DNA of 64,000 nt. It comes from Bacillota bacterium. GTDB taxonomy: Bacteria; Bacillota; SHA-98; UBA4971. The position numbers and the translations under genes are program-made. A model generated the notes under the pieces. That model had not been told where the DNA came from and searched no databases. It saw nothing but the letters and a program-made list of their open reading frames with translations. Where the stretch lies: NCBI GenBank assembly GCA_024653485.1, contig JANLFY010000003.1:112686-176685 (forward strand), in the 5' to 3' direction. Below, in pieces: positions 1 through 35,882 of this stretch (position 1 is its first letter; the number at the start of each line of letters is the position of its first letter).

Positions 1-662
1 GCCGGAGCCACGCTTGCGGGCATGTGTCTGCTGTGCCTCGCCTTCCTGACGATCACACCCCTGAACACTTCGCTCCTCGCTCCCTCCTCCGCGACTATTG
101 CGTCACGAAGGTTGAACGCCGGGTCAAGGAGGTTATCCAACCCAACCACCTTGGCGGCTTCCACGGCCAGCGCAGCTATGTCCTCATGACCTCTGCCTGC
201 GGTGTTCGCCACGCGTACCAGCCAAGGATCGCAAAGCCCCTGAATCGGTCGGGCGGAACGCTCCAGCGCCTCAATGGCGGCCCTCGCCCCGATCCTCACG
301 CCCTCAATCAGACGCGGCACCGGGACGCCGTCGGCCACCATGTCAAGCCCGGCCTGCACGAGGGCGCTAGCCATGATCGTGGCGGTGGTCGTGCCGTCGC
401 CTATCTCTTCATGCTGAGCCCGGGCGATGTTGATGAGCATCCTCGCGGCGGGATGGGTGGCCTCCATGCGCTCGAGTATGGTCCACCCATCGTTGGTCAC
501 GACCACGTCCCCCAGTCTATCAACGAGCATGGTGTCGAGGCCTTTGGGACCGATCGTTCCCTCGACCGCCGACGCAACCGCTCGAAGCGCGGAAGCATTC
601 GAGAGGAGAGCAGCTATCCTCTCATTCCCGCCGGTGTCGTTCGTCGTGCGCTGTTCGCTCAA
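1..662 (-). CDS. Group II chaperonin (thermosome/TCP-1-like Cpn60), N-terminal part; gene runs off the window edge
   Basis: Manual minus-strand translation from a TTG at 662 with GGAAAGAGGGG RBS gives ...ALRAVASAVEGTIGPKGLDTMLVD...VVTNDGWTILERMEATHPAARMLINIARAQHEEIGDGTTTATIMASAL, matching the thermosome N-terminal equatorial domain motifs (GPKG-D-MLVD; GDGTT ATP site). No ORF appears in the track because it uses a TTG start and is truncated. The plus-strand ORF 24..701 is the antisense artefact. Confidence 0.75.
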   Translation of the reverse strand, partial: MSEQRTTNDTGGNERIAALLSNASALRAVASAVEGTIGPKGLDTMLVDRLGDVVVTNDGWTILERMEATHPAARMLINIARAQHEEIGDGTTTATIMASALVQAGLDMVADGVPVPRLIEGVRIGARAAIEALERSARPIQGLCDPWLVRVANTAGRGHEDIAALAVEAAKVVGLDNLLDPAFNLRDAIVAEEGARSEVFRGVIVRKARHSRHMPASVAP

Positions 663-761
663 GAGAACCCCTCTTTCCCTGAAAGAGTTTCATGGGGCTA
701 AGCTAGCCTTAACCCCATGCGTCGAAGGCCACTGATGGCACTCGGCACCCACCTGGATACG

Positions 762-1811
762 TCACATGACGAGGATTCTCGTGAGGACATCCCCAAGGTT
801 CTCCGCGACGAACTCGACCAGCGCCACCACCCGCGAGTAGTGCATGCGGGTCGGGCCGACGACCCCGAGCGCGCCCATGGGGATGCCCCGGACTTCGTAT
901 GGCGCGCTCACCATGCTGCATGAATTCATGCTTGGATGCCCCGCCTCTCGGCCGATGGTGACCGTTACACCCGTGGCCCCCACAGCGCCGGAGAGAAGTC
1001 CGTGGAGAGCCTCTTCTTCCGCGAGGAACTCCAGCACGGTCCTGGCCTTCGAGACGTCCTGAAACTCGGGCTGTTCGAGGAGGTTCACCTGGCCATCGGC
1101 GTATACCTGTTCCTCACGATTGTCTTCGAGGGACTGAGCGATTGCCTCCATCGTGGCGTCGATGAAGCTGTTGTACTCATCGAGCTCCGCTTTGATCTCG
1201 CGCAGGAGCGATGTTCCGATACGGGAGAGCGGAAGGTTCACCAGCCGCGAATTCAGGAACTCAGCGATGCGAGCGAGTTGGGCGCCGGTCAGAGGATGCC
1301 CCGTGGCGATGAGATGTGTACGCACGAACCCTGGGTCAGTGACCAGCACGACCAGGACGTTTCGCGTGTCCACCGGAAGAATCTCGATGCGTCTGAACAC
1401 CCCGGCCTTCGAGATCGGGGACAGCACGAAGGCGGCGTACCTGGATAGATGCGCCAAAATCCTCGCCGTCTCCTCTATGATGAGGTTGATCTCTCGGCGC
1501 TTTTCGGCCAGAGCCCGCCTGATGCGCCCCCTCTCCTCTTCAGACACGGGCCTCTGCTTCATGATGAAGTCAACGTAGAAACGGTATCCCTTCTCGGAGG
1601 GGATGCGCCCCGAGGAGGTGTGGGGCTGTTCAAGGTAGCCCGACTCCTCCAGGTCCGCCATCTCGTTTCTGATGGTGGCGGGGCTTACGCCCAGGTTGTA
1701 TCTACGGGCGATCGTGCGGGACCCCACCGGTTCCGCAGTATGGATGTAATCGTCGGTGACTGCTTCCAGTATCCGCCTCTTTCTGGCGTCCATGACATGC
1801 TGGAAGCTCAT
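762..1811 (-). CDS. hrcA: Heat-inducible transcription repressor HrcA
   Basis: 349-aa ORF with HrcA features: N-terminal wHTH (ILEAVTDDYIHTAEPVGSRTIARRYNLGVSPATIRNEMADLEESGYL), full length. GGAGG RBS before ATG at 1811. CIRCE lies 30 nt upstream. Confidence 0.9.
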   Translation of the reverse strand: MSFQHVMDARKRRILEAVTDDYIHTAEPVGSRTIARRYNLGVSPATIRNEMADLEESGYLEQPHTSSGRIPSEKGYRFYVDFIMKQRPVSEEERGRIRRALAEKRREINLIIEETARILAHLSRYAAFVLSPISKAGVFRRIEILPVDTRNVLVVLVTDPGFVRTHLIATGHPLTGAQLARIAEFLNSRLVNLPLSRIGTSLLREIKAELDEYNSFIDATMEAIAQSLEDNREEQVYADGQVNLLEQPEFQDVSKARTVLEFLAEEEALHGLLSGAVGATGVTVTIGREAGHPSMNSCSMVSAPYEVRGIPMGALGVVGPTRMHYSRVVALVEFVAENLGDVLTRILVM

Positions 1812-1840
1812 CAGGTTTCCTCCTTATGTCAGCCTTCGCA

Positions 1841-1867
1841 TTAGCACTCGCACCACCTGAGTGCTAA
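1841..1867. promoter_or_regulatory. CIRCE operator (HrcA binding site), perfect inverted repeat TTAGCACTC-N9-GAGTGCTAA
   Basis: Sequence TTAGCACTCGCACCACCTGAGTGCTAA read directly; exact match to CIRCE consensus, immediately upstream of hrcA. Confidence 0.9.
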
Positions 1868-2095
1868 GCCCTCGCGATAAAGATATCACCCTATTTCGCC
1901 CTTTGTCAAGCGAGTTTTCTGCCCCGGTGGCATCGTTGACGAGCTCGCGCTCCTCCAGACCGCGGCGCCCTTGACCTCAGTGGTCCACGTTTGTCGTGGC
2001 ATCGCCCCATCTCACCGCGGCGGACGTCGCGCTTCCGACGCGATTCTATAGCTCCTGTCTCACTTCCGCAGCCTGTCCCCGATAGCAGACCGACG

Positions 2096-2521
2096 CTAGA
2101 GGGCACGCAGAAAGAACGCCGTCAAGCCTAGGATCGCGAGCACCTGGGTGAGAACGCCCCATGGGGGCGCGAGGCGTCCGTGCCTAATCACCCCGCTGTG
2201 ACTGGGAAACACGAGCCGGAGCCGTCCGTGCGGAGTGTACGCTCCGGGGAACACAAACGCCGCGGCGACCTCCAGATCCGGCAGCACGGCCCCCAAGCCG
2301 CCCGCTGTCGCGCGCACGTCCGCGCCCGCAGCCAGAAGGCCGAGGGCTACAAGGAGCGAGCAGGCGACGTCGAGCGCACCCTGAACCGCGCGGCTGTAGT
2401 CCGAGTGAGGCACATAATCCAGCACGGCATGGCTCACCAGCCCTGCCGCCGCCGCGAGAACAGGGCTTGGCGTGGCCACCCCGATGATAGCGCCCGCTAT
2501 GAAATGCGTTGTGCAATACAC
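2096..2521 (-). CDS. Small polytopic membrane protein, possibly DUF457/YdjM-like membrane-bound metal-dependent hydrolase
   Basis: 141-aa hydrophobic ORF with TH..AG and HAVLDYVPH motifs. Weak family assignment by memory only. Confidence 0.35.
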   Translation of the reverse strand: MYCTTHFIAGAIIGVATPSPVLAAAAGLVSHAVLDYVPHSDYSRAVQGALDVACSLLVALGLLAAGADVRATAGGLGAVLPDLEVAAAFVFPGAYTPHGRLRLVFPSHSGVIRHGRLAPPWGVLTQVLAILGLTAFFLRAL

Positions 2522-2548
2522 CCCTCCACTCTCCTCCTTTGAGCGGAA

Positions 2549-3070
2549 TCAGCCCGCGGACCCCTGCGACTCCCTCTGTTCACCAATGGGCGTCGCGATG
2601 ACCCGTTCGCCGCGCGAGACTCCGTCCCCTTCAGCGTCCGGTGCACTCGAGGGCACAACCGGACTCGAGAGCACAACGCGGTCCCCGCCGGAGCTAGAGG
2701 GGTCGCCCAGGCGGCCAAGCCACCCGCCAAAGCGCGTGAGAACCCGTAGCGTCGCTCGAGTAGTGCGCCTTGTGGCTGAAGCCAGCCACCTGGCGCACTC
2801 GCTCGCCGCGAGGAATGCACGGAGTCGGGCTCGCCGCGCGAAGGCAAGCTCATCCTCGATGTCGAGACGGCAGGACTTGCCAAGCAGGAAGACGACGTAT
2901 GCATGACCGTCATTCTCGCGCTCAACGCCAACGCACGGCGCAGGCATGTCCACGCCACGGAGGTCGGCCTCGGCCCGCTGCGCAAGGTTGAGTCCGAGGG
3001 CGACGAGCACGCCGAAAAGGCAGACGAATGCGGCCCAGCTCGCTGTCGCAACGCCGGGGATCCGCCTCAT
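2549..3070 (-). CDS. Hypothetical membrane-anchored protein directly downstream of spoIIP (YqxA-like position)
   Basis: 173-aa ORF with N-terminal TM segment (AAFVCLFGVLVALGL) and 4-nt overlap with the spoIIP stop. Its position matches yqxA in the B. subtilis spoIIP operon, but sequence similarity is not verifiable here. Confidence 0.35.
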   Translation of the reverse strand: MRRIPGVATASWAAFVCLFGVLVALGLNLAQRAEADLRGVDMPAPCVGVERENDGHAYVVFLLGKSCRLDIEDELAFARRARLRAFLAASECARWLASATRRTTRATLRVLTRFGGWLGRLGDPSSSGGDRVVLSSPVVPSSAPDAEGDGVSRGERVIATPIGEQRESQGSAG

Positions 3071-4455
3071 CTCTGGATGTCCTCCAGCACGCAGGCGACC
3101 ACGTCCGCAAGGAGGGTCGCCGCGCGCTCCGCTTCCTGTCTAGTGTTCTGCTCGCACCCGATCTCGAGGATGACTGCCCTGCTGTGGACGTGCTGGTTCC
3201 ACCTGGCGTCGTCCCGCACGTTGATCCCCCTTGAAAGTCCTGGGTACATCTCATCCATTTTCGCGTTGAGATAATACGCAAACGCCAGGTTTTCGCGCCA
3301 ATTCGGGTGGGGGAGTCCGAAGCGGTCCGTCGTGACCACTATGAACACTCTTGCGGCTTTCTGGCCGTCTATCTCCACTGTGGGCGACGCCGAGATCCCT
3401 GCGGTTCCGGCATCCCGGTGAACGTCGAATACCATCTCTATCGTGGGGTGTTCCTTCAGCACGGAGGAAACCGTCTCATGGGAGTTGATGTACGCCTCCC
3501 TCCACACCGGGTAGTCGTGGATCTTCCGCGAGTGGAGCACTGGGATGCCGTACTTCTCCGAAAGCGCCTTGGCGAGCTCCGCGCCCACAGAGATCACGCC
3601 TTCCTCGCTTCCCCACACGTGATCCGCTCCAGAAGTGAGCCTATATGCTTCCGAACTATGTGAGTGGTAGATGAACACCAGGGGCTTACTGCCCCATCCC
3701 CGCGTCTGGGCTCGCAGCCGCGTAGAGCCGCTTTGGTCCGACGGCAGCGGACGCGGAATCACGACGGCCGGCGGCGCAGGTTCTCGTTGCGGCAATGGCG
3801 CCTCGACCCCTCCCGGCGGATCCTCCGGCGTGGTCCCCTCATCTAGACGGCCGGGCTGTTCCCCGGCAGACGACTGTGTGGGGCTGACTGAGCCTCCCGT
3901 GGGCTCGCTCGTCGCAGTGCTCGCTGAGGGCCTCGCTGCAGGGAGGTACCCGGGAATGCCGACGGAAAGAAACGTCCTTGGGTCCTCGAGGTCCGCCGCG
4001 GAGAGCGTCAGCAACAGGGAGAGGAGGCGTGCAGGCATGGGTCCCGAAGACGTTCTCGTTTCTGTCATCCGGACCCGCGCGAACATGGGAATGGCGGTCT
4101 CAACGAGCCCGTAGGGAGCCATGAAGTCAACCGCGGCCCGGGCCTCTCGAACAAGCCTTCGCTCGCCTTCCACCAGGAATCCGCTGAAAGCAGGGAGGAT
4201 CCCTCCACGCCGCGAGCCAGTCCGGACCTCCAAGAGACCGGCCACACCCATGCCGAGGCCCACGAGGAGGACGGCCAAATAGACAAGCGCGGGCCCCCAC
4301 GGGTTCCTGACAGATTGGAACGGAGAACGGCTCCTGCGCGCGCCCCTGCGAATTCGCCAAGACCACCTGCGGCTCCCCCACACCCATCTCATGTCGACGT
4401 ACCTCCGGCCCGGCAACGGGGACCCTTGCCTGTCCAGTCGGCGGTGGGCGGACAT
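3067..4455 (-). CDS. spoIIP: Stage II sporulation protein P (SpoIIP), cell-wall amidase/peptidase
   Basis: C-terminal domain motifs VFIYHSHSSEAY, HDYPVWREAYINSHETV and VFDVHRD are typical of SpoIIP. The true start is probably an internal M, since the N-terminal ~70 aa of the ORF are R-rich. Located downstream of gpr as in Bacillus. Confidence 0.8.
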   Translation of the reverse strand: MSAHRRLDRQGSPLPGRRYVDMRWVWGSRRWSWRIRRGARRSRSPFQSVRNPWGPALVYLAVLLVGLGMGVAGLLEVRTGSRRGGILPAFSGFLVEGERRLVREARAAVDFMAPYGLVETAIPMFARVRMTETRTSSGPMPARLLSLLLTLSAADLEDPRTFLSVGIPGYLPAARPSASTATSEPTGGSVSPTQSSAGEQPGRLDEGTTPEDPPGGVEAPLPQREPAPPAVVIPRPLPSDQSGSTRLRAQTRGWGSKPLVFIYHSHSSEAYRLTSGADHVWGSEEGVISVGAELAKALSEKYGIPVLHSRKIHDYPVWREAYINSHETVSSVLKEHPTIEMVFDVHRDAGTAGISASPTVEIDGQKAARVFIVVTTDRFGLPHPNWRENLAFAYYLNAKMDEMYPGLSRGINVRDDARWNQHVHSRAVILEIGCEQNTRQEAERAATLLADVVACVLEDIQR

Positions 4456-4539
4456 CGCCCATTCCTCGACTCATCTATATGTCGTGGGCGGGCGATCTAG
4501 ACTTGAGCCCCTTCCCCGAAAGGCGCGGCCCCGCAGAGG

Positions 4540-5610
4540 TCACGAGAGGTAGGCCAACACCTTGTCCCAGTCCATGGACGGATGGAGCGCGGCGTTGAGC
4601 CCTGCCGCGACGACCGTGGCGAGGTCTTCCACGAGATCGTCGATCTCCTTGGGCGTCACGACCAGGGATCCAAAGTAAGGTGCGAGCATGCGGGAAAGGA
4701 ACTGCCGCCTCTGGGCCTCCTCCGGGAAGCCTTGACCTGGGCCCGCCCCAGGCGCCCGCCCCTGCCCCTGCACGAAGCCCATGGCGTCGAGGGCTATGGT
4801 CTCCGCGGCCACGACAGTTGGCACACCCACGGCGATCACGGGCACGCCAAGGCTGTCTCTGGTGATCCCGAGGCGCTTGTTCCCCACGCCGGATCCGGGT
4901 CTGATGCCCGTGTCTCCCATCTGAATCGTAGCGCCCAGACGGCTCGTGGACATGGAAGCGAGCGCGTCGACGACCACAACCAGATCCGGCCTCACGTTGC
5001 TTACGACACCCCTTATGATCTCCCCCGTCTCAATCCCGGTGAGCCCGAGCACGCCTGGGGCGATGGCGCACACGGGTCTCATACCGCCCCGTAGCTCAGG
5101 CGGGACGAGGCTGTGCAGGTGCCGTGTGACCGTGAGGTACTGAACCGTGCGCGGTCCGAGGGCGTCAGGTGTGGCCTGCCAGTTGCCCAAGCCGGCTACG
5201 AGCACTGTAGCCTCGGGCGCTATAGGAGCGAGCCTGAGGAACTCCCGGGCGAAGGTTTGAGCGAGGTCTTCCTGCACCTCCTTGCTTTGGCTTCGTAGAT
5301 GTGGAGACTCAATCGTCACGTAGTTGCCGCGCACCTTTCCGAGTGCGCGCTCCGCTTCCTCGGTCATGACTCTCACACGGGTTACCGTAGCGTACCGGGT
5401 TCTCTCCGTCTCCGATAGGACCCCCGGAACCTCCGCGCCCGTCCTCCGCGCGACGAATTCGTGCGCCTCTACCGCGAGGTCTGTCCGGACGCCCGGGGAC
5501 CCCCAGCCAGCTTCAACTTGCCCCGTGCGTGGTTCCGCCTCACGTGCCCTCGGGACCCTGGGGCCGTGTCTCCTTGCCGTTCTCGTCCTGCTTCCACCTG
5601 ATAGTCGCAT
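4540..5610 (-). CDS. gpr: Germination protease (spore endopeptidase Gpr)
   Basis: RTDLAVEAHE...GLGNWQATPDALGP...DTGIRPGSGVGNKR...GVPVIAVGVPTVV aligns along its length with B. subtilis Gpr. The start is likely internal (GTG near 5517), as the first ~30 aa of the ORF are R-rich. Confidence 0.85.
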   Translation of the reverse strand: MRLSGGSRTRTARRHGPRVPRAREAEPRTGQVEAGWGSPGVRTDLAVEAHEFVARRTGAEVPGVLSETERTRYATVTRVRVMTEEAERALGKVRGNYVTIESPHLRSQSKEVQEDLAQTFAREFLRLAPIAPEATVLVAGLGNWQATPDALGPRTVQYLTVTRHLHSLVPPELRGGMRPVCAIAPGVLGLTGIETGEIIRGVVSNVRPDLVVVVDALASMSTSRLGATIQMGDTGIRPGSGVGNKRLGITRDSLGVPVIAVGVPTVVAAETIALDAMGFVQGQGRAPGAGPGQGFPEEAQRRQFLSRMLAPYFGSLVVTPKEIDDLVEDLATVVAAGLNAALHPSMDWDKVLAYLS

Positions 5611-5658
5611 TCGGCATCACTTCCCGCTCTCGTAGTTCGGGTAGGTCTCGTGAGTGGA

Positions 5659-6057
5659 TCACCGCTGCTTCGTTCCGTCCTCCTGCGGGCGAGCTGAATC
5701 CGTTGGTGGCGGCGATTCCACCTGCACCAGGAGATCGGTGAGCCCCACCACTGCTCCAGCGAGGAGAACGCCGCCCACGGGCACGGTCATCCCCGGAACG
5801 AAGAACTGCGTGAAATGGGCTGCCGCAGCGGTCGTCAGGAACCCCACGACCGCCCGACCTTCGTTTCGCAACCGGCGTGCGAAGAGGGTCTCCAAGACGT
5901 ACCCCGCGGCAGCGGCGCATGCGCCAGCCGGAATCGCGCCCGAAAACCCGCCCGCTGCAAAGCCCGGGATTACGTAACTCAGGCATAGGAGGGTGACCGT
6001 GCACGCGAGGAACCTCGCCGCGGCTCCGAACAACACTTCCTCTACCCCCGCACTCAC
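5659..6057 (-). CDS. Possible small hydrophobic membrane protein (hypothetical)
   Basis: 132-aa ORF with protein-like hydrophobic composition in the otherwise long (~640 nt) gpr–rpsT intergenic region. No recognisable family. Confidence 0.3.
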   Translation of the reverse strand: MSAGVEEVLFGAAARFLACTVTLLCLSYVIPGFAAGGFSGAIPAGACAAAAGYVLETLFARRLRNEGRAVVGFLTTAAAAHFTQFFVPGMTVPVGGVLLAGAVVGLTDLLVQVESPPPTDSARPQEDGTKQR

Positions 6058-6255
6058 GGTGCAAGGTGCGCCGGACTCCGTGGTCGTCGCTCGTGTCGTA
6101 TCTTTCCCGATGACGCGTCTTCGTATCCGCCGTGCGGCACCGTACCTGCGGCAAGTCCCACGTTTGCGTCACGTGATCGAGACGTGTTGCAGTCCCGGAC
6201 GGCTCATGGTAGAATTGGTTTCGTGATCGGCCAAGTCGCAAGGAGGTTGAGGTGT

Positions 6256-6534
6256 TTGCCTAACATCAAGTCGGCAGAGAAACGAGTGAAAACCACACGG
6301 GTGCGGACCCTGCGTAACGCCTCCGTGAAGAGCGCCCTGAAGACCGCGGTGAAGAAGTACGAGGCGCAGCTCGCCCAGGCAGATCGGCCGGCGGCCGAGG
6401 CTGCGCTGCGCAAGGCCATAAGCGCCATAGACAAGGCGGAGAAGAAAGGCGTCATTCACAAGAACCAGGCTGCCAGGCGGAAATCCCGCCTGACGAAGAG
6501 CCTGGCTTCACTTACCGGAGCGGCGGAAGCCTAG
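6256..6534 (+). CDS. rpsT: 30S ribosomal protein S20
   Basis: PNIKSAEKRVKTTRVRTLRNASVKSALKTAVKKYE... is typical S20. Probable TTG start at 6256 preceded by AGGAGG; the track ORF starts at an upstream in-frame GTG at 6184. Confidence 0.85.
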   Translation: MPNIKSAEKRVKTTRVRTLRNASVKSALKTAVKKYEAQLAQADRPAAEAALRKAISAIDKAEKKGVIHKNQAARRKSRLTKSLASLTGAAEA

Positions 6535-6715
6535 GCTCTCAGGCACCAACAAGCGGGGTGTCTTGACTAGACGGCCTGGAGGTTGTGCGAGGTCGCGCGT
6601 GTACGGTCGAGCGCTGGGCAGACCGATGCCCGTCAGAGGCACCGAGAGTGGGGGCTTTCGAGGTCTTCCCGGCGCATGGTCGGGTCCCTGAAGCATCAGT
6701 CCCGTGGGCGGCTCG

Positions 6716-7840
6716 TCACGTGGGCTGGCGGCTGGGAACGCTAGGCGCCCTTTCAGCGCACAGCCGGGCGATGAGTCCCTCGATCATCACTCCCTCGGGC
6801 GCGGAGGAGGTCTTGAGACCGACATCCGTCTCAGCAAGGACCTCGAAGGTGTCCTCCAGCTCTTCTCGTGTGAAGTTCCTTGCTTGCCCGACATACTTGC
6901 GCACCATTGAGTCCTGCAGGCGAGTGGCGTCGGCGATCCTCTTGAGAGGTGCGCCCTCCTCTAGCAGGATTCTCGTCCTCAAGATGAGGCGTATCTGTCG
7001 AGCCACCATGGATAGGATACGCGTCGAAGGCTCTCCGAAGCTGAGAAGTCGGCGTGCGGCTGCTATGGCCTTCGCCCCATCCTTCGCTCCCAAAGCGTCC
7101 ACGAGATCGAAAATGCCGAGGGCGGGCTCGCCCGCGGATGCCGCCATGACGTGCTCCAGCGTCACTTTCTGCTGTGGGCGGACGACAGCGCCTCTCGAGC
7201 TCGAGCTCTCAGGGGCTGCTACCCCCGCGTAGTTCCGAGCTTTCTCCATGGCTTCAGCGAGCCTCGCGGCGCTGGTTCCGATCGTCCGTACCAGATAGTC
7301 GCGAGCCTCACGGTCGAGATCGATCCCCTTGTCCCGCGCGTGCCTCGCGAGCCAGGACGCGGCCTCGTTATCGTACAGGGACCGATACCGCACGACCCTT
7401 CCGATCTCTGCGATGGCCCTGCACGCCGTCGTACGTTCGTCGACCGCTTCAGCGACAAGGATGACCACGCTCGTTCGAGGCATTCTGCGCAGAGCCTCCG
7501 CCAACGACTTCTGCTCGTCCGCTGAAAGCTCGTCAAATCCGCGAACCATGACCACGCGCCTCTCAGCAAACGCCGGCGGGGACAATACCGCGGCAACCAC
7601 GGACTCGAGATCTGCCTCGCGGGCCCGGAACACCACGTAATTGAAGTCACGCGTGTCGGGGGCGAGGCACGCGTCTGCAATGGTCCTCGCGGCCTCATCG
7701 CGGAGATACCCCTCTTCACCGTAGAGGAGGTAGACCGGTCTCAGCCTTCCAGACCTTACGTCGGCGGCCAGTTCCCCTGGTCCAGAAGCCACCCTGGAAT
7801 CACCCCGTTTCCATCTGCCCTCGGCCGCGCTGACCTCCAT
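6716..7840 (-). CDS. holA: DNA polymerase III delta subunit (HolA)
   Basis: 374-aa ORF with RPVYLLYGEEGYLRDEAARTIADACL... and the clamp-loader delta architecture. Divergent from rpsT as in B. subtilis. Confidence 0.8.
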   Translation of the reverse strand: MEVSAAEGRWKRGDSRVASGPGELAADVRSGRLRPVYLLYGEEGYLRDEAARTIADACLAPDTRDFNYVVFRAREADLESVVAAVLSPPAFAERRVVMVRGFDELSADEQKSLAEALRRMPRTSVVILVAEAVDERTTACRAIAEIGRVVRYRSLYDNEAASWLARHARDKGIDLDREARDYLVRTIGTSAARLAEAMEKARNYAGVAAPESSSSRGAVVRPQQKVTLEHVMAASAGEPALGIFDLVDALGAKDGAKAIAAARRLLSFGEPSTRILSMVARQIRLILRTRILLEEGAPLKRIADATRLQDSMVRKYVGQARNFTREELEDTFEVLAETDVGLKTSSAPEGVMIEGLIARLCAERAPSVPSRQPT

Positions 7841-7882
7841 AATGCCATCCGGTCGGTGGATCGTCGGTGGGTCGTCGGCGGA

Positions 7883-8767
7883 TCAGCTCTTCAGGCCAGT
7901 GCGCGCGATGCCTTGAATGAACTGCTTCTGCACGAAGAAGAACCCGATCACTACAGGCATTATAGCCATTGTGGATGCTGCCATCAACAGCGTGGGCACG
8001 GTCCCGTGTTCCTGCATGAACGTGGACAACCCCACCTGGATCGTGCGCATCTTGTCGGTGTTCGTCACGATGAGGGGCCATAGAAACGCGTTCCAACTCC
8101 CGATGAACGTGAACAGGCCGCACGTAATGAACACGGGCTTGGAAAGCGGGACTGTGACTCTCCAGAGGTACCCCAAGCGCGAGCATCCGTCTATCTGCGC
8201 CGCATCGTAAAGCTCTCTCGGGATGGTCTGGAAGAACTGCCGCATCAGGAATATGCCAAACACGCTCGCAAGCCACGGCACTATAAGGGCGTAATACGTG
8301 TCTATCCAGTCCAGCCTGAAGAGCAGAACATAGTTGGGGACGAGCGTCATCTGATCGGGGATCATCATGGTCCCCAAGAAGAGAGTGAAAATGACCTCTC
8401 GACCGAAGAAATCCATGGTCGCAAAGGCGTACGCGGCGAGCGCGGAGAACGTGAGCTGGCCGATTGTGGTGGCGGTCGCCACAAACGCGCTGTTGAGGAA
8501 GTACCTCGCGAAGGGCGCCTCGTTCCAGGCGTCCACGTAGTTCGACCACACGAGGCGCGACGGTATCCACCTGATGGGAACCGTGAATACTTCGCTGTAG
8601 TCCTTGAGCGACGTGGATATCATCCAGGCGAATGGGGCAAGCATCACAACCGAGCCTGCCAGGAGAAAAGCATGGATGGCGAAGGATCGTCCCAAGCGCA
8701 CGGCCGCGGCGCGTCTGTCACGTCGTGACCTCGTCCGACGCGGTTTCGTAGTCATGCTCGACCACAA
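7883..8767 (-). CDS. Carbohydrate ABC transporter permease (MalG/UgpE-like)
   Basis: Six-TM permease with the EAA-loop region (YDAAQIDGCSRLGYLWRVTVPL). Confidence 0.8.
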   Translation of the reverse strand: MWSSMTTKPRRTRSRRDRRAAAVRLGRSFAIHAFLLAGSVVMLAPFAWMISTSLKDYSEVFTVPIRWIPSRLVWSNYVDAWNEAPFARYFLNSAFVATATTIGQLTFSALAAYAFATMDFFGREVIFTLFLGTMMIPDQMTLVPNYVLLFRLDWIDTYYALIVPWLASVFGIFLMRQFFQTIPRELYDAAQIDGCSRLGYLWRVTVPLSKPVFITCGLFTFIGSWNAFLWPLIVTNTDKMRTIQVGLSTFMQEHGTVPTLLMAASTMAIMPVVIGFFFVQKQFIQGIARTGLKS

Positions 8768-8783
8768 TGGGCGTGTCCCCTCC

Positions 8784-9770
8784 TTACTGGTAGTGCACCC
8801 GTGAACCTATGTACTTGCGCTGAAGAAGCGTGAGAACGAAGATGATGACGAAAAGCGTGTAGGCCATGGCTGACGCGTACCCCATCTTGAAGTCCTCGAA
8901 CCCGATCTTGTACAGGTAGTACACCACTACGAGAGTGCTCTTCAGCGGCCCTCCTCTCGTCATTACGTATACTTGGCTGAACACCTGGAACGATCCAATG
9001 ACCGACACTATGAGCACGAAGAACGTTGTCGGCGACAGAAGGGGCCAGGTGATGTACCGGAACATCGACCAGCCTTTTGCCCCGTCTATCTGGGCCGCCT
9101 CATAGTACTCACTCGAAATGTTCTGAAGCCCCGCTAGGAATATCACGACGTTGTATCCGAGCCCCTTCCAGATGCTCATGAGGATGATGCACGGCATGGC
9201 CCACCTCGGATCAAGGAGCCACGATTGAATGGGAAGCCCAAGCCTATCAAGGAGGCCGTTCACGAGCCCGGAGTAATCAGGATGGTATATCCAGAACCAG
9301 ACTATGGCCACGGCATTCGCGGCGGTGACGACAGGCAGGAAATACACCGTGCGGTACCACGCGAGCCCTCTGATCTTCTGATTGAGCAGCACAGCCACGA
9401 ACAGCGCCACGGCCATGGACGTCGGGACAGTGCCCAAGACGTAGTACACCGTGTTCACCAGGGACGTCACGAAATCCGAGTCTCTCAGGAGGGCAGCGTA
9501 ATTCGCCAGACCCACGAACTCGGGGTTTGGGCTGATGTAATTCCACTCAAGAAGGCTAACGTAGAACGCGTAGATGACCGGCGCGAAATGGAACGCCACG
9601 AGCACCGCCGTGGCAGGCAGAAGGTACAGGTAAGCGACGAGGGTCTCCCTTAAGTATTTGCTGCGCCTGGCTGAGCCACGTGCCCCGGACCGTGAAACCT
9701 GCAATTGACAGCACCACCTTGATAAGAGTGACCGCCCATCTGGACGAGGTGTCACCGCGACTGGAGCCAA
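8784..9770 (-). CDS. Carbohydrate ABC transporter permease (MalF/UgpA-like)
   Basis: Permease with EAAQIDGAKGWSMFRYITWPLL motif. The start is probably internal, since the ORF's 5' end overlaps the upstream gene. Confidence 0.8.
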   Translation of the reverse strand: MAPVAVTPRPDGRSLLSRWCCQLQVSRSGARGSARRSKYLRETLVAYLYLLPATAVLVAFHFAPVIYAFYVSLLEWNYISPNPEFVGLANYAALLRDSDFVTSLVNTVYYVLGTVPTSMAVALFVAVLLNQKIRGLAWYRTVYFLPVVTAANAVAIVWFWIYHPDYSGLVNGLLDRLGLPIQSWLLDPRWAMPCIILMSIWKGLGYNVVIFLAGLQNISSEYYEAAQIDGAKGWSMFRYITWPLLSPTTFFVLIVSVIGSFQVFSQVYVMTRGGPLKSTLVVVYYLYKIGFEDFKMGYASAMAYTLFVIIFVLTLLQRKYIGSRVHYQ

Positions 9771-11956
9771 CGGACAAGCTTCAGCATGAACTCCTCGTTA
9801 CCCAGGCCCGGACGGAAGTCATACACTGAGTAGAGCGGCGCGCCCATCGCTACGACACACCCATCGCCGATCCGTTCCATCGCACACACCACCGGGCGTG
9901 TCTCATAAGCGTGCCATGGGCCCTTCCCGTTGGTGTCCACGTTCTTCGTTCCGTCGCTCCCCTCGAGGATGACCACCGGGCCGGAATGCCCAACAAGGCC
10001 GCCGAACGCTGCATCCACGACGGTGCACGCCTGCGACGCCTGGACCGGCAAGGATAGGGCCCCCAGGAGTTCCTCTCCGGCGCGCGCGAGCTCGCAGGTC
10101 ACGGACGAGCTCACCGTCGGCCCTTCGCACAGCCAGACTTCGTCGTCGGAAAACCTCATCGATGAGCCAAGCGAAGCGAGGATCGCGTTCAGTTGCGCCA
10201 CATCCCGCGACGGGTCGGACGCGTCGGACGAGCCCGCTAGGATTAGTGCTCCTCCCAGGGCGACGAAGCCTCGAATCGCTGCGATCTCGGACTCGTCAAA
10301 CGTCGAGGGGGTGAGAGAGATCCCGGGTTCGGGATTGGCCACGACAAGGACCGACGCCCCTCTCAGAGCCTCGGGGCAGATTCTCCCTTGGCTGAGCCTG
10401 CCCACTGAATCAGCGGTCGACAACGCCTCCAGAAACCTACCTGCGAAACCGCTCGAGCGGTTGTTGTGGCCCTCGTCCACGACGACCTCGCGAAGGTTCT
10501 CGGGCAGGACCTTCACGCGGGCTGAGTACACGTTGTCGCTGAGCCCCGGCCTAGCAGGGTCGACAAGCGTGGCCATCACCGTCACGTCCCCGCTCACCGG
10601 GCACGACCATTGGAGGGAGACGGGCACGGTTGCTCCGGGCTCGAGGTCGATCCTCATCGCCCCTATCGGCCATCGGCGTCCTCCCGCGCTCGCGGAGAAC
10701 TCGACTATCACGCCAACCAGCGGGTCTTTGCCCAGGTTCACGACGTCGCAGCGGAGATGGCCCCAAGTGCCTTTCTTGGCCATCGGCACATCGAACCGAA
10801 GGTCCACTGCGATGAGATCCGACTGGCTCTTGGCCCAGATGGGGCTCGTTACGACGAGATCGCCGTCGGACTGCTGGATCCGCGCGTAGTACCACGTGTA
10901 CCCCTGAGTCGGTTCCACCTCGAAAGTCCTTCTGAAGGGTCTGCCCGGGTCACCTTCTTCCCCGGACGCATCGAACGCCACAACGGTCACTCCGCCGTTG
11001 GACCTCACCTCCACCTTCTCAACAACGTCCCCGGGGTCTGGATCGCGCACCTCGATCTCCAGCTCCACCTTCCCCAGGGGTAGGATCTCCCCCATCCATT
11101 TCCCGTTCCCCGCAAAGCGCACCTGCACGTTCCGGTCCTCTGTGGAGTAGGTGCGGAGCGCGCGCAGCGCTTCCATGAGGCTCTCGTGGGTGAGGGCGCG
11201 CGCCACCACGCCCGTCCTCGTGTCGGCGGCGGTGCCCCAGTCTGCCCTGTGGTTGTCCTGGCTGTTCGTGGCCCCTACCTTCCAACCGCGGTCCAGGGCC
11301 CGGATGTAGGACCGTTCATAAAGCGTGTTCCTTGCGTACGGGCCCGAGCCGACCTCGAGCAGCCTTATCGTCCTATTGCCGGCCAGGGAGTACTGAAAGT
11401 CGTTCCACATGCCTTGCTCGTTCCATCCCGGATGATTGAACGTGGCGACGGCGCCCTTGCCCTCCATCCACGCTACGAGGTCTTCCAGGCCCCGCTGCGT
11501 GTCCCGCGAACACGGTTCCGGTGCTTCGATCACAGATATGTGCCCAGCGCCGTGGGTCCATTCGGTGCCTCGGAACGCCACGAACCTTCCCGGCTCCGTG
11601 AACCGCCAAGCCGTCTCAACGAGTGCCTCCCAATGGTGGGGATTCTCGACCATGTAGTACCCATGCTCCGTGATTCCGAGAAAATCGAGGCCGGCCACGT
11701 CTCTCGCGTGCGCGTACGCGTCCTCGGGCGTTAGCGCGCCGTCGGAGAACGAGGTGTGAGAGTGCAAGTACCCGAAATAGAAGCCCATCTCGACCTGCTG
11801 CGCGGAAGCGGGGCGGCACGTGATCAGGAGGGCGATGCAAAGAGGCGTGACGAGCGTCTGGATCAGCTTTTCCCCACGGTTCAAGGGGGCCCCTCCTTTC
11901 TCGGAAACGGGCGGGGCAAAGGTCCGGGGCCAGGATCCCCGCCTGCCCCGGACCAC
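9752..11956 (-). CDS. Secreted multidomain protein: N-terminal PHP/CehA-McbA family metallohydrolase domain, central CARDB-like region, C-terminal GldG/DUF4350-like domain
   Basis: Signal-peptide-like LIQTLVTPLCIALLITCRPASA, then the PHP motif GYLHSHTSFSDGALTPEDAYAHARD...LDFLGITEHG. 734 aa, embedded between the SBP and permease genes of the ABC operon. Confidence 0.6.
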   Translation of the reverse strand: MVRGRRGSWPRTFAPPVSEKGGAPLNRGEKLIQTLVTPLCIALLITCRPASAQQVEMGFYFGYLHSHTSFSDGALTPEDAYAHARDVAGLDFLGITEHGYYMVENPHHWEALVETAWRFTEPGRFVAFRGTEWTHGAGHISVIEAPEPCSRDTQRGLEDLVAWMEGKGAVATFNHPGWNEQGMWNDFQYSLAGNRTIRLLEVGSGPYARNTLYERSYIRALDRGWKVGATNSQDNHRADWGTAADTRTGVVARALTHESLMEALRALRTYSTEDRNVQVRFAGNGKWMGEILPLGKVELEIEVRDPDPGDVVEKVEVRSNGGVTVVAFDASGEEGDPGRPFRRTFEVEPTQGYTWYYARIQQSDGDLVVTSPIWAKSQSDLIAVDLRFDVPMAKKGTWGHLRCDVVNLGKDPLVGVIVEFSASAGGRRWPIGAMRIDLEPGATVPVSLQWSCPVSGDVTVMATLVDPARPGLSDNVYSARVKVLPENLREVVVDEGHNNRSSGFAGRFLEALSTADSVGRLSQGRICPEALRGASVLVVANPEPGISLTPSTFDESEIAAIRGFVALGGALILAGSSDASDPSRDVAQLNAILASLGSSMRFSDDEVWLCEGPTVSSSVTCELARAGEELLGALSLPVQASQACTVVDAAFGGLVGHSGPVVILEGSDGTKNVDTNGKGPWHAYETRPVVCAMERIGDGCVVAMGAPLYSVYDFRPGLGNEEFMLKLVRWLQSR

Positions 11957-34832: not shown

Positions 34833-35882
34833 TTACCTTCTCTGTCCCACGCGTGAGGAGGCCGTCAGCATCCGGCGGTACCGATCCATTTCCTCGAGCG
34901 CCTTGCCTGCACCTCTCACTACACACGTAAGCGGCTCATCCGCACGGTGGACCGGCATTCCAGTTGACTCGGACAGCACCCGTTCGATGCCGTCCACGAG
35001 CGACCCTCCGCCCGATGCCACGATCCCTTTGTCGATTATGTCGGCGGAGAGCTCAGGCGGCGTTCTCTCGAGAGTCATCTTGACCGCCTCGACTATCGCA
35101 CCTATGGGTTCGCGCAGCGCCACCTCTACCTCCCGCGCGGAGATTCGCACCGTCTTCGGCAGGCCGGATACCATGTCCCTGCCCTTTATCTCCATGGTCG
35201 CCTCAGGATCTCGGGGGCAGGCGGATCCCATGTGCTTCTTTATCTCCTCGGCCGTCCTCGTCCCTATGACCAGGTTGTAAACCTTCTTGACGTGTTGCAC
35301 TATGGCCTCGTCCATTTCGTCCCCGGCGATCCGGATCGATTTCGATGCCACGATTCCACCGAGGGATATCACGGCTATCTCCGTGGTCCCGCCGCCTATG
35401 TCCACAACCATGTTCCCCGACGGCTCAAACACTGGAAGCCCTGCGCCCACGGCCGCTGCGAGCGGCTCCTCGATCAGGTAAGCCTCACGAGCCCCTGCCT
35501 GTAGCGCCGCGTCTATCACCGCCCGCCTTTCTACCTCCGTCACGCCGGACGGAACCCCTATCACTACACGGGGTCGGACGAGGGCACGACCGCGGTGCGC
35601 TCTCACTATGAAATGACGAAGCATCATCTCAGTCACGTCGAAGTCGGCTATGACGCCGTCTTTCAACGGACGAACAACTGCGATGTTCCCGGGGGTCCTC
35701 CCGACCATGCGGTTGGCGGCCGAGCCGACCTCGAGAATCGCTCCCGTGTCTTTGCGAATGGCAACGACCGAGGGCTCTTGGATCACGACTCCCTTTCCCT
35801 TCACGTAGACCAGGGAATTCGCGGTCCCCAAATCAATGGCGAGGTCCTTCGAGAAGAAAGCGAGCACAGGGTCAAGAATCAC
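34833..35882 (-). CDS. mreB: Rod shape-determining protein MreB (actin homologue)
   Basis: LAIDLGTANSLVYVKGKGVVIQEPSVVAI... and full actin-fold motifs. GTG start at 35882 with GAAGGGAGAA RBS; the track ORF extends 11 codons further. Confidence 0.9.
   Translation of the reverse strand: MILDPVLAFFSKDLAIDLGTANSLVYVKGKGVVIQEPSVVAIRKDTGAILEVGSAANRMVGRTPGNIAVVRPLKDGVIADFDVTEMMLRHFIVRAHRGRALVRPRVVIGVPSGVTEVERRAVIDAALQAGAREAYLIEEPLAAAVGAGLPVFEPSGNMVVDIGGGTTEIAVISLGGIVASKSIRIAGDEMDEAIVQHVKKVYNLVIGTRTAEEIKKHMGSACPRDPEATMEIKGRDMVSGLPKTVRISAREVEVALREPIGAIVEAVKMTLERTPPELSADIIDKGIVASGGGSLVDGIERVLSESTGMPVHRADEPLTCVVRGAGKALEEMDRYRRMLTASSRVGQRR

Follow-up and report, generated by a model that had tools for sequence, protein, structure and literature searches.

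The closest described relatives of the gene considered here are the Group III, or thermosome-like, chaperonins, whose prototype is Ch-CPN of Carboxydothermus hydrogenoformans. By 2017, 195 Group III paralogues had been counted (PMC5635000), and their genes were found inside the dnaK operon "with one exception" (PMC5635000; PMC5220055). A passage of PMC5904260 that cites Techtmann and Robb (2010) describes these genes as HrcA-regulated. Group III proteins lack the nucleotide-sensing loop, being six residues shorter than Group II at this point, and have a conserved arginine that contacts the gamma-phosphate (PMC5635000). We analysed a 64,000-nucleotide stretch of DNA from a Bacillota bacterium (contig JANLFY010000003.1 of assembly GCA_024653485.1), hereafter the window. 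At its left edge, on the minus strand, a chaperonin gene (cpn) lies downstream of the heat-shock repressor gene hrcA and of the operator-like element CIRCE (controlling inverted repeat of chaperone expression).

Positions 1..662 (minus strand) almost certainly hold the 5' part of a Group III chaperonin gene that is intact and stands second in a CIRCE-led class I heat-shock operon. The window holds codons 1-220 of 520, from a TTG start at 662..660, with no stop codon before its edge. These codons cover the protein from its N-terminal equatorial segment through the intermediate domain into the beginning of the apical domain; the remaining codons lie past the edge. The partial translation carries GPKGLDTMLVD, VTNDG and GDGTTT, which are typical of Cpn60/TCP-1. 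The complete gene was read on two public contigs, both reached via an identical HrcA protein. One is JARYMN010000003.1 of NCBI assembly GCA_029907145.1, a metagenome-assembled genome (MAG) labelled "Firmicutes bacterium", and the other is Ga0417229_000034 of the Joint Genome Institute (JGI) metagenome 3300038743. Window positions 1..11811 match both with 0 mismatches, and in both the complete open reading frame (ORF) of cpn has 520 amino acids, with no stop and no frameshift.

In terms of family models, the protein matches PF00118 (Cpn60_TCP1) over its full length with 349 bits. The best NCBIfam models are those for thermosome, at 270-278 bits, with cutoffs of 400-671 that are not reached: thermosome_beta gives 278 bits against a cutoff of 400, TIGR02339 gives 271 against 671, and all CCT subunit models are far below cutoff. 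For GroEL models the score is 172 bits at most (cutoff 352), split over two partial stretches of which the better lies in the C-terminal equatorial part. Since all curated thermosome, CCT and GroEL cutoffs are missed, the protein is neither GroEL nor thermosome by curated criteria. The sequence-only reading, made from the 5' part, had called the product archaeal-type (group II) and not GroEL, and had proposed to score the full-length protein against both kinds of profile. That comparison (278 bits for thermosome, at most 172 for GroEL) bears out the second half of the claim. The first half has to be changed to Group III, the protein being below every thermosome and CCT cutoff.

A sequence search of the PDB gave 558 bits (1.4e-166) for 9RWQ, the ancestral Group III chaperonin ACIII, and 413 bits (1.2e-122) for Ch-CPN (5X9U/5X9V). 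An ancestral Group II chaperonin followed with 264 bits (1.6e-77), and archaeal thermosomes with about 217 bits (about 1e-63). A distance-based (neighbour-joining) tree of bacterial and archaeal sequences, built without a GroEL outgroup, placed cpn together with 56 other bacterial sequences and apart from the 16 archaeal ones. It shares 42-60% identity with the bacterial and 31-35% with the archaeal sequences.

Two database labels in this family deserve mention. 9RWQ is ACIII, a reconstructed Group III ancestor (PMC12696368); its molecule name in the PDB reads "Ancestral Group II Chaperonin (ACII)", contrary to the depositing paper, and could mislead automated annotation. Several homologues also carry the JGI label GroEL.

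The defining features of Group III were taken from An et al. 2017 (PMC5635000). The protein has no nucleotide-sensing loop, being six residues short there when aligned with ACII, the KS-1 thermosome and the archaeal sequences. At the site of the Group II motif MTGK stands AGRG, with an arginine (Arg157) in place of the conserved lysine. Arg157 and Asp376 align with Arg155 and Asp373 of Ch-CPN and are invariant among 18 homologues, as are GDGTTT (G88-T93) and VPGGG (G392-G394). The lid is 3+1 residues shorter than in the archaeal sequences and aligns free of gaps with lid residues 223-263 of Ch-CPN.

The AlphaFold model of the protein has a mean predicted local distance difference test (pLDDT) of 86.8, with a helix predicted at 243-265. 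Its closest structural matches are 5X9V and 5X9U, with template modelling (TM) scores of 0.89/0.94 and, for 5X9V, a root-mean-square deviation of 2.1 Å. Group II structures give TM scores of about 0.82-0.85, all below those of 5X9V and 5X9U. Alignment and predicted fold both give the protein an apical domain that carries its own helical lid. Of the outcomes that the sequence-only reading had named as refuting it (a better GroEL score, no apical/lid domain, a stop or frameshift soon past the edge), none occurred.

As for the operon, the minus-strand order is promoter, CIRCE, hrcA, cpn, grpE, dnaK, dnaJ, with the genes downstream of cpn read on the public contigs. The promoter-like site consists of a -35 TTGACA (1904..1909, minus strand), invariant in four clade relatives, and a -10 TATCTT (1880..1885, minus strand), kept as TAT(C/G)TT in clade relatives, with an 18-nucleotide spacer and a TG two bases upstream of the -10. 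It lies upstream of CIRCE and is the only sigma-70-like site in 1..2200. CIRCE itself, TTAGCACTC-N9-GAGTGCTAA (1841..1867, no strand assigned), is the putative HrcA operator; it has 0 mismatches, just as the sequence-only reading had reported of a perfect element upstream of hrcA. It begins 12 nucleotides downstream of the -10 and finishes 29 nucleotides upstream of the hrcA ATG. The first of these distances would place CIRCE in the transcript leader. No second CIRCE was found in the 64 kb, even with 3 mismatches allowed (0.01 matches expected by chance). In the four clade relatives with enough upstream sequence, both promoter hexamers and CIRCE are conserved.

The gene hrcA (762..1811, minus strand) encodes a heat-inducible repressor of 349 amino acids and is intact. 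Its product scores 339 bits with TIGR00331, exceeding the equivalog cutoff of 197, and 1.8e-63 with PF01628. It is preceded by the Shine-Dalgarno sequence AAGGAGG (1819..1825, minus strand), read from the sequence. A class I heat-shock regulon is marked by a CIRCE consensus between the promoter and the first gene together with an intact HrcA, and the locus has both. Downstream, grpE, dnaK and dnaJ do succeed cpn on the extended contigs, a point that the sequence-only reading had left to be checked, and the grpE start overlaps the cpn stop by 4 bp. This overlap suggests that cpn and grpE may be translationally coupled. The placement of such a chaperonin in a dnaK heat-shock operon, which the sequence-only reading had given as already described, agrees with what is reported for Group III (PMC5635000; PMC5220055).

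A survey across the family gave the same picture. Among the matches listed in a scan of GTDB species representatives, 80 loci were kept, 64 bacterial and 16 archaeal. In 59 of the 64 bacterial loci hrcA lies directly upstream of cpn, and 3 of the other 5 end at a contig edge. CIRCE is found upstream of hrcA in 56/64, being perfect in 55, and grpE plus dnaK lie downstream of cpn in 50/64. Not one of these features, be it hrcA, CIRCE or grpE-dnaK, occurs in the 16 archaeal loci. The closest relatives, on seven contigs (L083-L089) with 69-88% protein identity, have cpn followed by an overlapping grpE in 7/7 cases and hrcA upstream in 6/7. The 120 best protein clusters were all at least 55% identical to the query. 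Members occur in Bacilli too, for example in Paenibacillus and Thermoactinomyces. The sequence-only reading had considered bacterial genes of this kind rare and known from "a few Firmicutes", which does not stand up against 195 paralogues by 2017 (PMC5635000), at least 64 bacterial loci, and labels beyond Bacillota.

Some variations of this arrangement were found. Four loci (L008, L012, L013 and L018) show a variant operon layout, CIRCE-hrcA-cpn and then directly dnaJ; the 6 kb downstream gave no grpE or dnaK match. Two of the four are MAGs labelled Candidatus Fermentithermobacillaceae. In two others (L004 and L027) a Group III-like cpn of 52-55% identity stands outside the operon. No hrcA, grpE, dnaK, dnaJ or CIRCE was found within 6 kb on either side in L004, nor in L027 within 6 kb upstream and the roughly 3 kb available downstream. 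These out-of-operon Group III cases exceed the single exception of the literature. Furthermore, three loci (L024, L028 and L041) have the Group III operon in MAGs labelled Armatimonadota and Solirubrobacterales (Actinomycetota), where contamination of the MAG is possible. In L024, hrcA is present with no recognisable CIRCE.

When compared to Ch-CPN, the protein studied here shows end-to-end homology and its best structural match; both are without the nucleotide-sensing loop and have a shortened lid, the equivalents of Arg155 and Asp373 are present, and the Ch-CPN family is likewise in the dnaK operon (PMC5635000). However, identity over the structural alignment is only 42%, and two lid-tip residues differ in the clade studied here (Phe243 to Ile and Tyr246 to His). 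The host is an uncultured Bacillota MAG with a 63% G+C window that contains sporulation genes, and the hrcA-cpn spacer of 99 nucleotides has an invariant stem-loop specific to the clade.

The archaeal Group II thermosome and the eukaryotic CCT have the same three-domain fold and built-in lid, no GroES partner, and the hidden Markov models that score best among the curated ones. Unlike the thermosome, the protein has a lid four residues shorter and AGRG for MTGK, shares 31-35% identity with archaeal sequences, falls below the curated cutoffs and belongs to a CIRCE heat-shock operon. Lastly, a class I operon of the Bacillus subtilis type likewise has the promoter, the leader CIRCE, hrcA in first place, grpE-dnaK-dnaJ, and rsmE-like and radical-SAM genes, whereas the present one has an extra chaperonin gene between hrcA and grpE.

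Three points weigh against reading cpn as a typical Group III gene under HrcA control. The first is the lid tip. Four hydrophobic residues of Ch-CPN at this place, Leu237, Phe243, Tyr246 and Phe253, were called strictly conserved in Group III (PMC5635000). The corresponding residues here are Leu240, Ile246, His249 and Phe256, which means that 2/4 are kept; residues 246 and 249 are coded past the window edge, at L001:11885-11896. The pair of Ile/Leu and His is common to the nine closest homologues only, and aligned members outside the clade retain Phe and Tyr. Members from Paenibacillus and Thermoactinomyces also deviate at lid-tip positions. Because other members deviate too, the lid-tip criterion appears looser than stated in PMC5635000, and it does not exclude the protein from Group III. 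The second point is a strong conserved hairpin between hrcA and cpn (691..719), which could terminate or process the transcript. The third is that co-transcription of cpn with hrcA, and its control by HrcA, are what we infer.

The least improbable alternative concerns the spacer hairpin: cpn-grpE-dnaK-dnaJ would be transcribed apart from hrcA, with the hairpin at 691..719 ending the hrcA transcript and cpn outside CIRCE/HrcA control. The structure in question, found by folding the 99-nucleotide spacer, is a GC-rich 12-bp stem-loop, CAUGGGGUUAAG-GCUAG-CUUAGCCCCAUG (691..719, minus strand). It lies 43 nucleotides past the hrcA stop and 28 nucleotides before the cpn start, and is followed by the weakly T-rich AAACTnTTTC. 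Its core, GGGGTTAAGG-N3/4-AGCTTAGCCCC, does not vary among 8 clade members (69-100% Cpn identity), while its flanks drift; one base pair has changed from U-A to C-G, a compensatory change, and another from G.U to A-U. As a canonical intrinsic terminator the hairpin fails, having no proper T-run and not being called by the terminator scan. There is no promoter-like site in the spacer, and only 28 nucleotides separate the hairpin from the cpn start. Moreover, in many family members the gap between hrcA and cpn is below 20 nucleotides or the genes overlap, so that a separate cpn promoter would hardly fit. We consider separate transcription unlikely.

With cpn kept in the CIRCE-led operon, other roles for the stem-loop come into question. 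It gave no Rfam match, and it is unique in the window and hence not a dispersed repeat. Nor is it an element of the whole family, where spacers range from -8 to 211 nucleotides and the longer ones often have strong hairpins of unrelated sequence. Lacking a T-run and any promoter-like site after it, the hairpin is best read as a possible attenuator, or a possible element of processing or mRNA stability, that adjusts the stoichiometry of repressor to chaperone. The B. subtilis dnaK-operon transcript is reportedly processed between hrcA and grpE, as Homuth et al. are said to have found in 1999, with more stable downstream mRNA as the result. By analogy with B. subtilis, the hairpin at 691..719 would fit differential stability and not transcript independence. 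A weak 7-bp hairpin at 671..687, over the cpn ribosome-binding site, might suggest an RNA thermometer, but the clade relatives do not preserve its pairing.

A second explanation is that cpn is a genuine Group II thermosome gene that entered the dnaK operon by recent transfer from an archaeon. Thermosome models are indeed its best-scoring curated NCBIfam models, and the fold is Group II-like at the TM scores given above. Yet the scores are far under the thermosome cutoffs (278 vs 400 and 271 vs 671 bits), and the identity to archaeal sequences falls well short of the 42-60% shared with bacterial Group III. The absence of the six-residue nucleotide-sensing loop and the presence of the Group III lid deletion, the place of cpn in the tree among the bacterial sequences, and the identical operon position in dozens of bacterial species all speak against a recent transfer. 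This origin is very improbable.

Even less credence can be given to a divergent Group I chaperonin, that is, a GroEL paralogue working with GroES. The partial GroEL matches of up to 172 bits, best in the C-terminal equatorial part, are all that would favour it. They are split in two and remain under the cutoff of 352 bits, whereas thermosome and Group III matches run end to end. The predicted apical helical protrusion aligns with the Ch-CPN lid, and no groES adjoins cpn in the locus.

Finally, the fact that 220 codons alone are visible in the window might suggest a pseudogene in decay, or an error of assembly at the edge. Both are refuted for practical purposes by the intact ORF in two independent public assemblies, the invariant catalytic and nucleotide-binding motifs, the high-confidence structure model, and orthologues of 69-88% identity at the same position in seven other contigs.

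If the Group III operon works as its homologues and the literature would lead one to expect, a sigma-70-type promoter would give one transcript with CIRCE in its 5' leader. HrcA bound to CIRCE would repress the operon at normal temperature, and folding stress would lift this repression, and the chaperonin would presumably be induced along with GrpE, DnaK and DnaJ. The protein would form a double-ring 16-mer closed by the built-in helical lid, not by GroES. It would hydrolyse ATP via the equivalents of Arg157 and Asp376. Closure would be expected on ATP binding, as in Ch-CPN, and, for lack of the Group II nucleotide-sensing loop, would show little cooperativity. A twist specific to this lineage is also conceivable, though we give it rather low credence: the stem-loop at 691..719 might set the ratio of repressor to chaperone, and Ile246/His249 at the lid tip might alter client or DnaK docking.

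As for translation of cpn, a Shine-Dalgarno-like AGAGGGG (668..674, minus strand) stands 5 nucleotides before the TTG and is partly inside the weak hairpin at 671..687. The TTG start is kept in 8/8 clade members (the window and L083-L089), after a similar purine-rich stretch. On the 3' side of dnaJ follow an rsmE-like methyltransferase gene (PF04452), a radical-SAM gene (PF00919/PF04055), a HIT-family gene and rpsU.

Upstream of hrcA, window positions 2096..7840 contain two small ORFs (141 and 173 amino acids; no Pfam match), spoIIP, the germination protease gene gpr, rpsT and holA. The neighbours holA, rpsT, gpr and spoIIP resemble the Bacillus gene order. In B. subtilis, lepA and hemN are the genes normally found between spoIIP and hrcA; here both are missing, and the two small ORFs stand instead. 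The window has a G+C content of 63%, which together with its sporulation genes suggests a high-G+C endospore-former as host. No GroEL-like paralogue was found within the 64-kb window; according to published surveys, genomes with a Group III chaperonin have GroEL as well, which would make its absence notable. An Rfam search across the whole window gave one tRNA only and no rRNA. A weak DnaK-like tblastn match at 35277..35855 (minus strand; 30% identity, 1e-13) probably corresponds to another ATPase of the actin/Hsp70 fold.

The arrangement proposed by the sequence-only reading is therefore real but ordinary, having been known since 2010: the locus adds one member to a family whose operon and regulator are already described. 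The correct annotation of cpn is a Group III (thermosome-like) chaperonin, neither GroEL nor thermosome, and there is little significance beyond that. Any direct cooperation between Group III chaperonins and DnaK would be no easier to test at this locus than in the cultured prototypes. An effect of the stem-loop or of the lid tip, if true, would amount to a modest regulatory or mechanistic variation within a known system and not to a new system. What the survey adds for the family is that CIRCE-hrcA-cpn is very consistent, that the family extends into Bacilli and into MAGs labelled Armatimonadota and Solirubrobacterales, and that more than one exception lies outside the operon.

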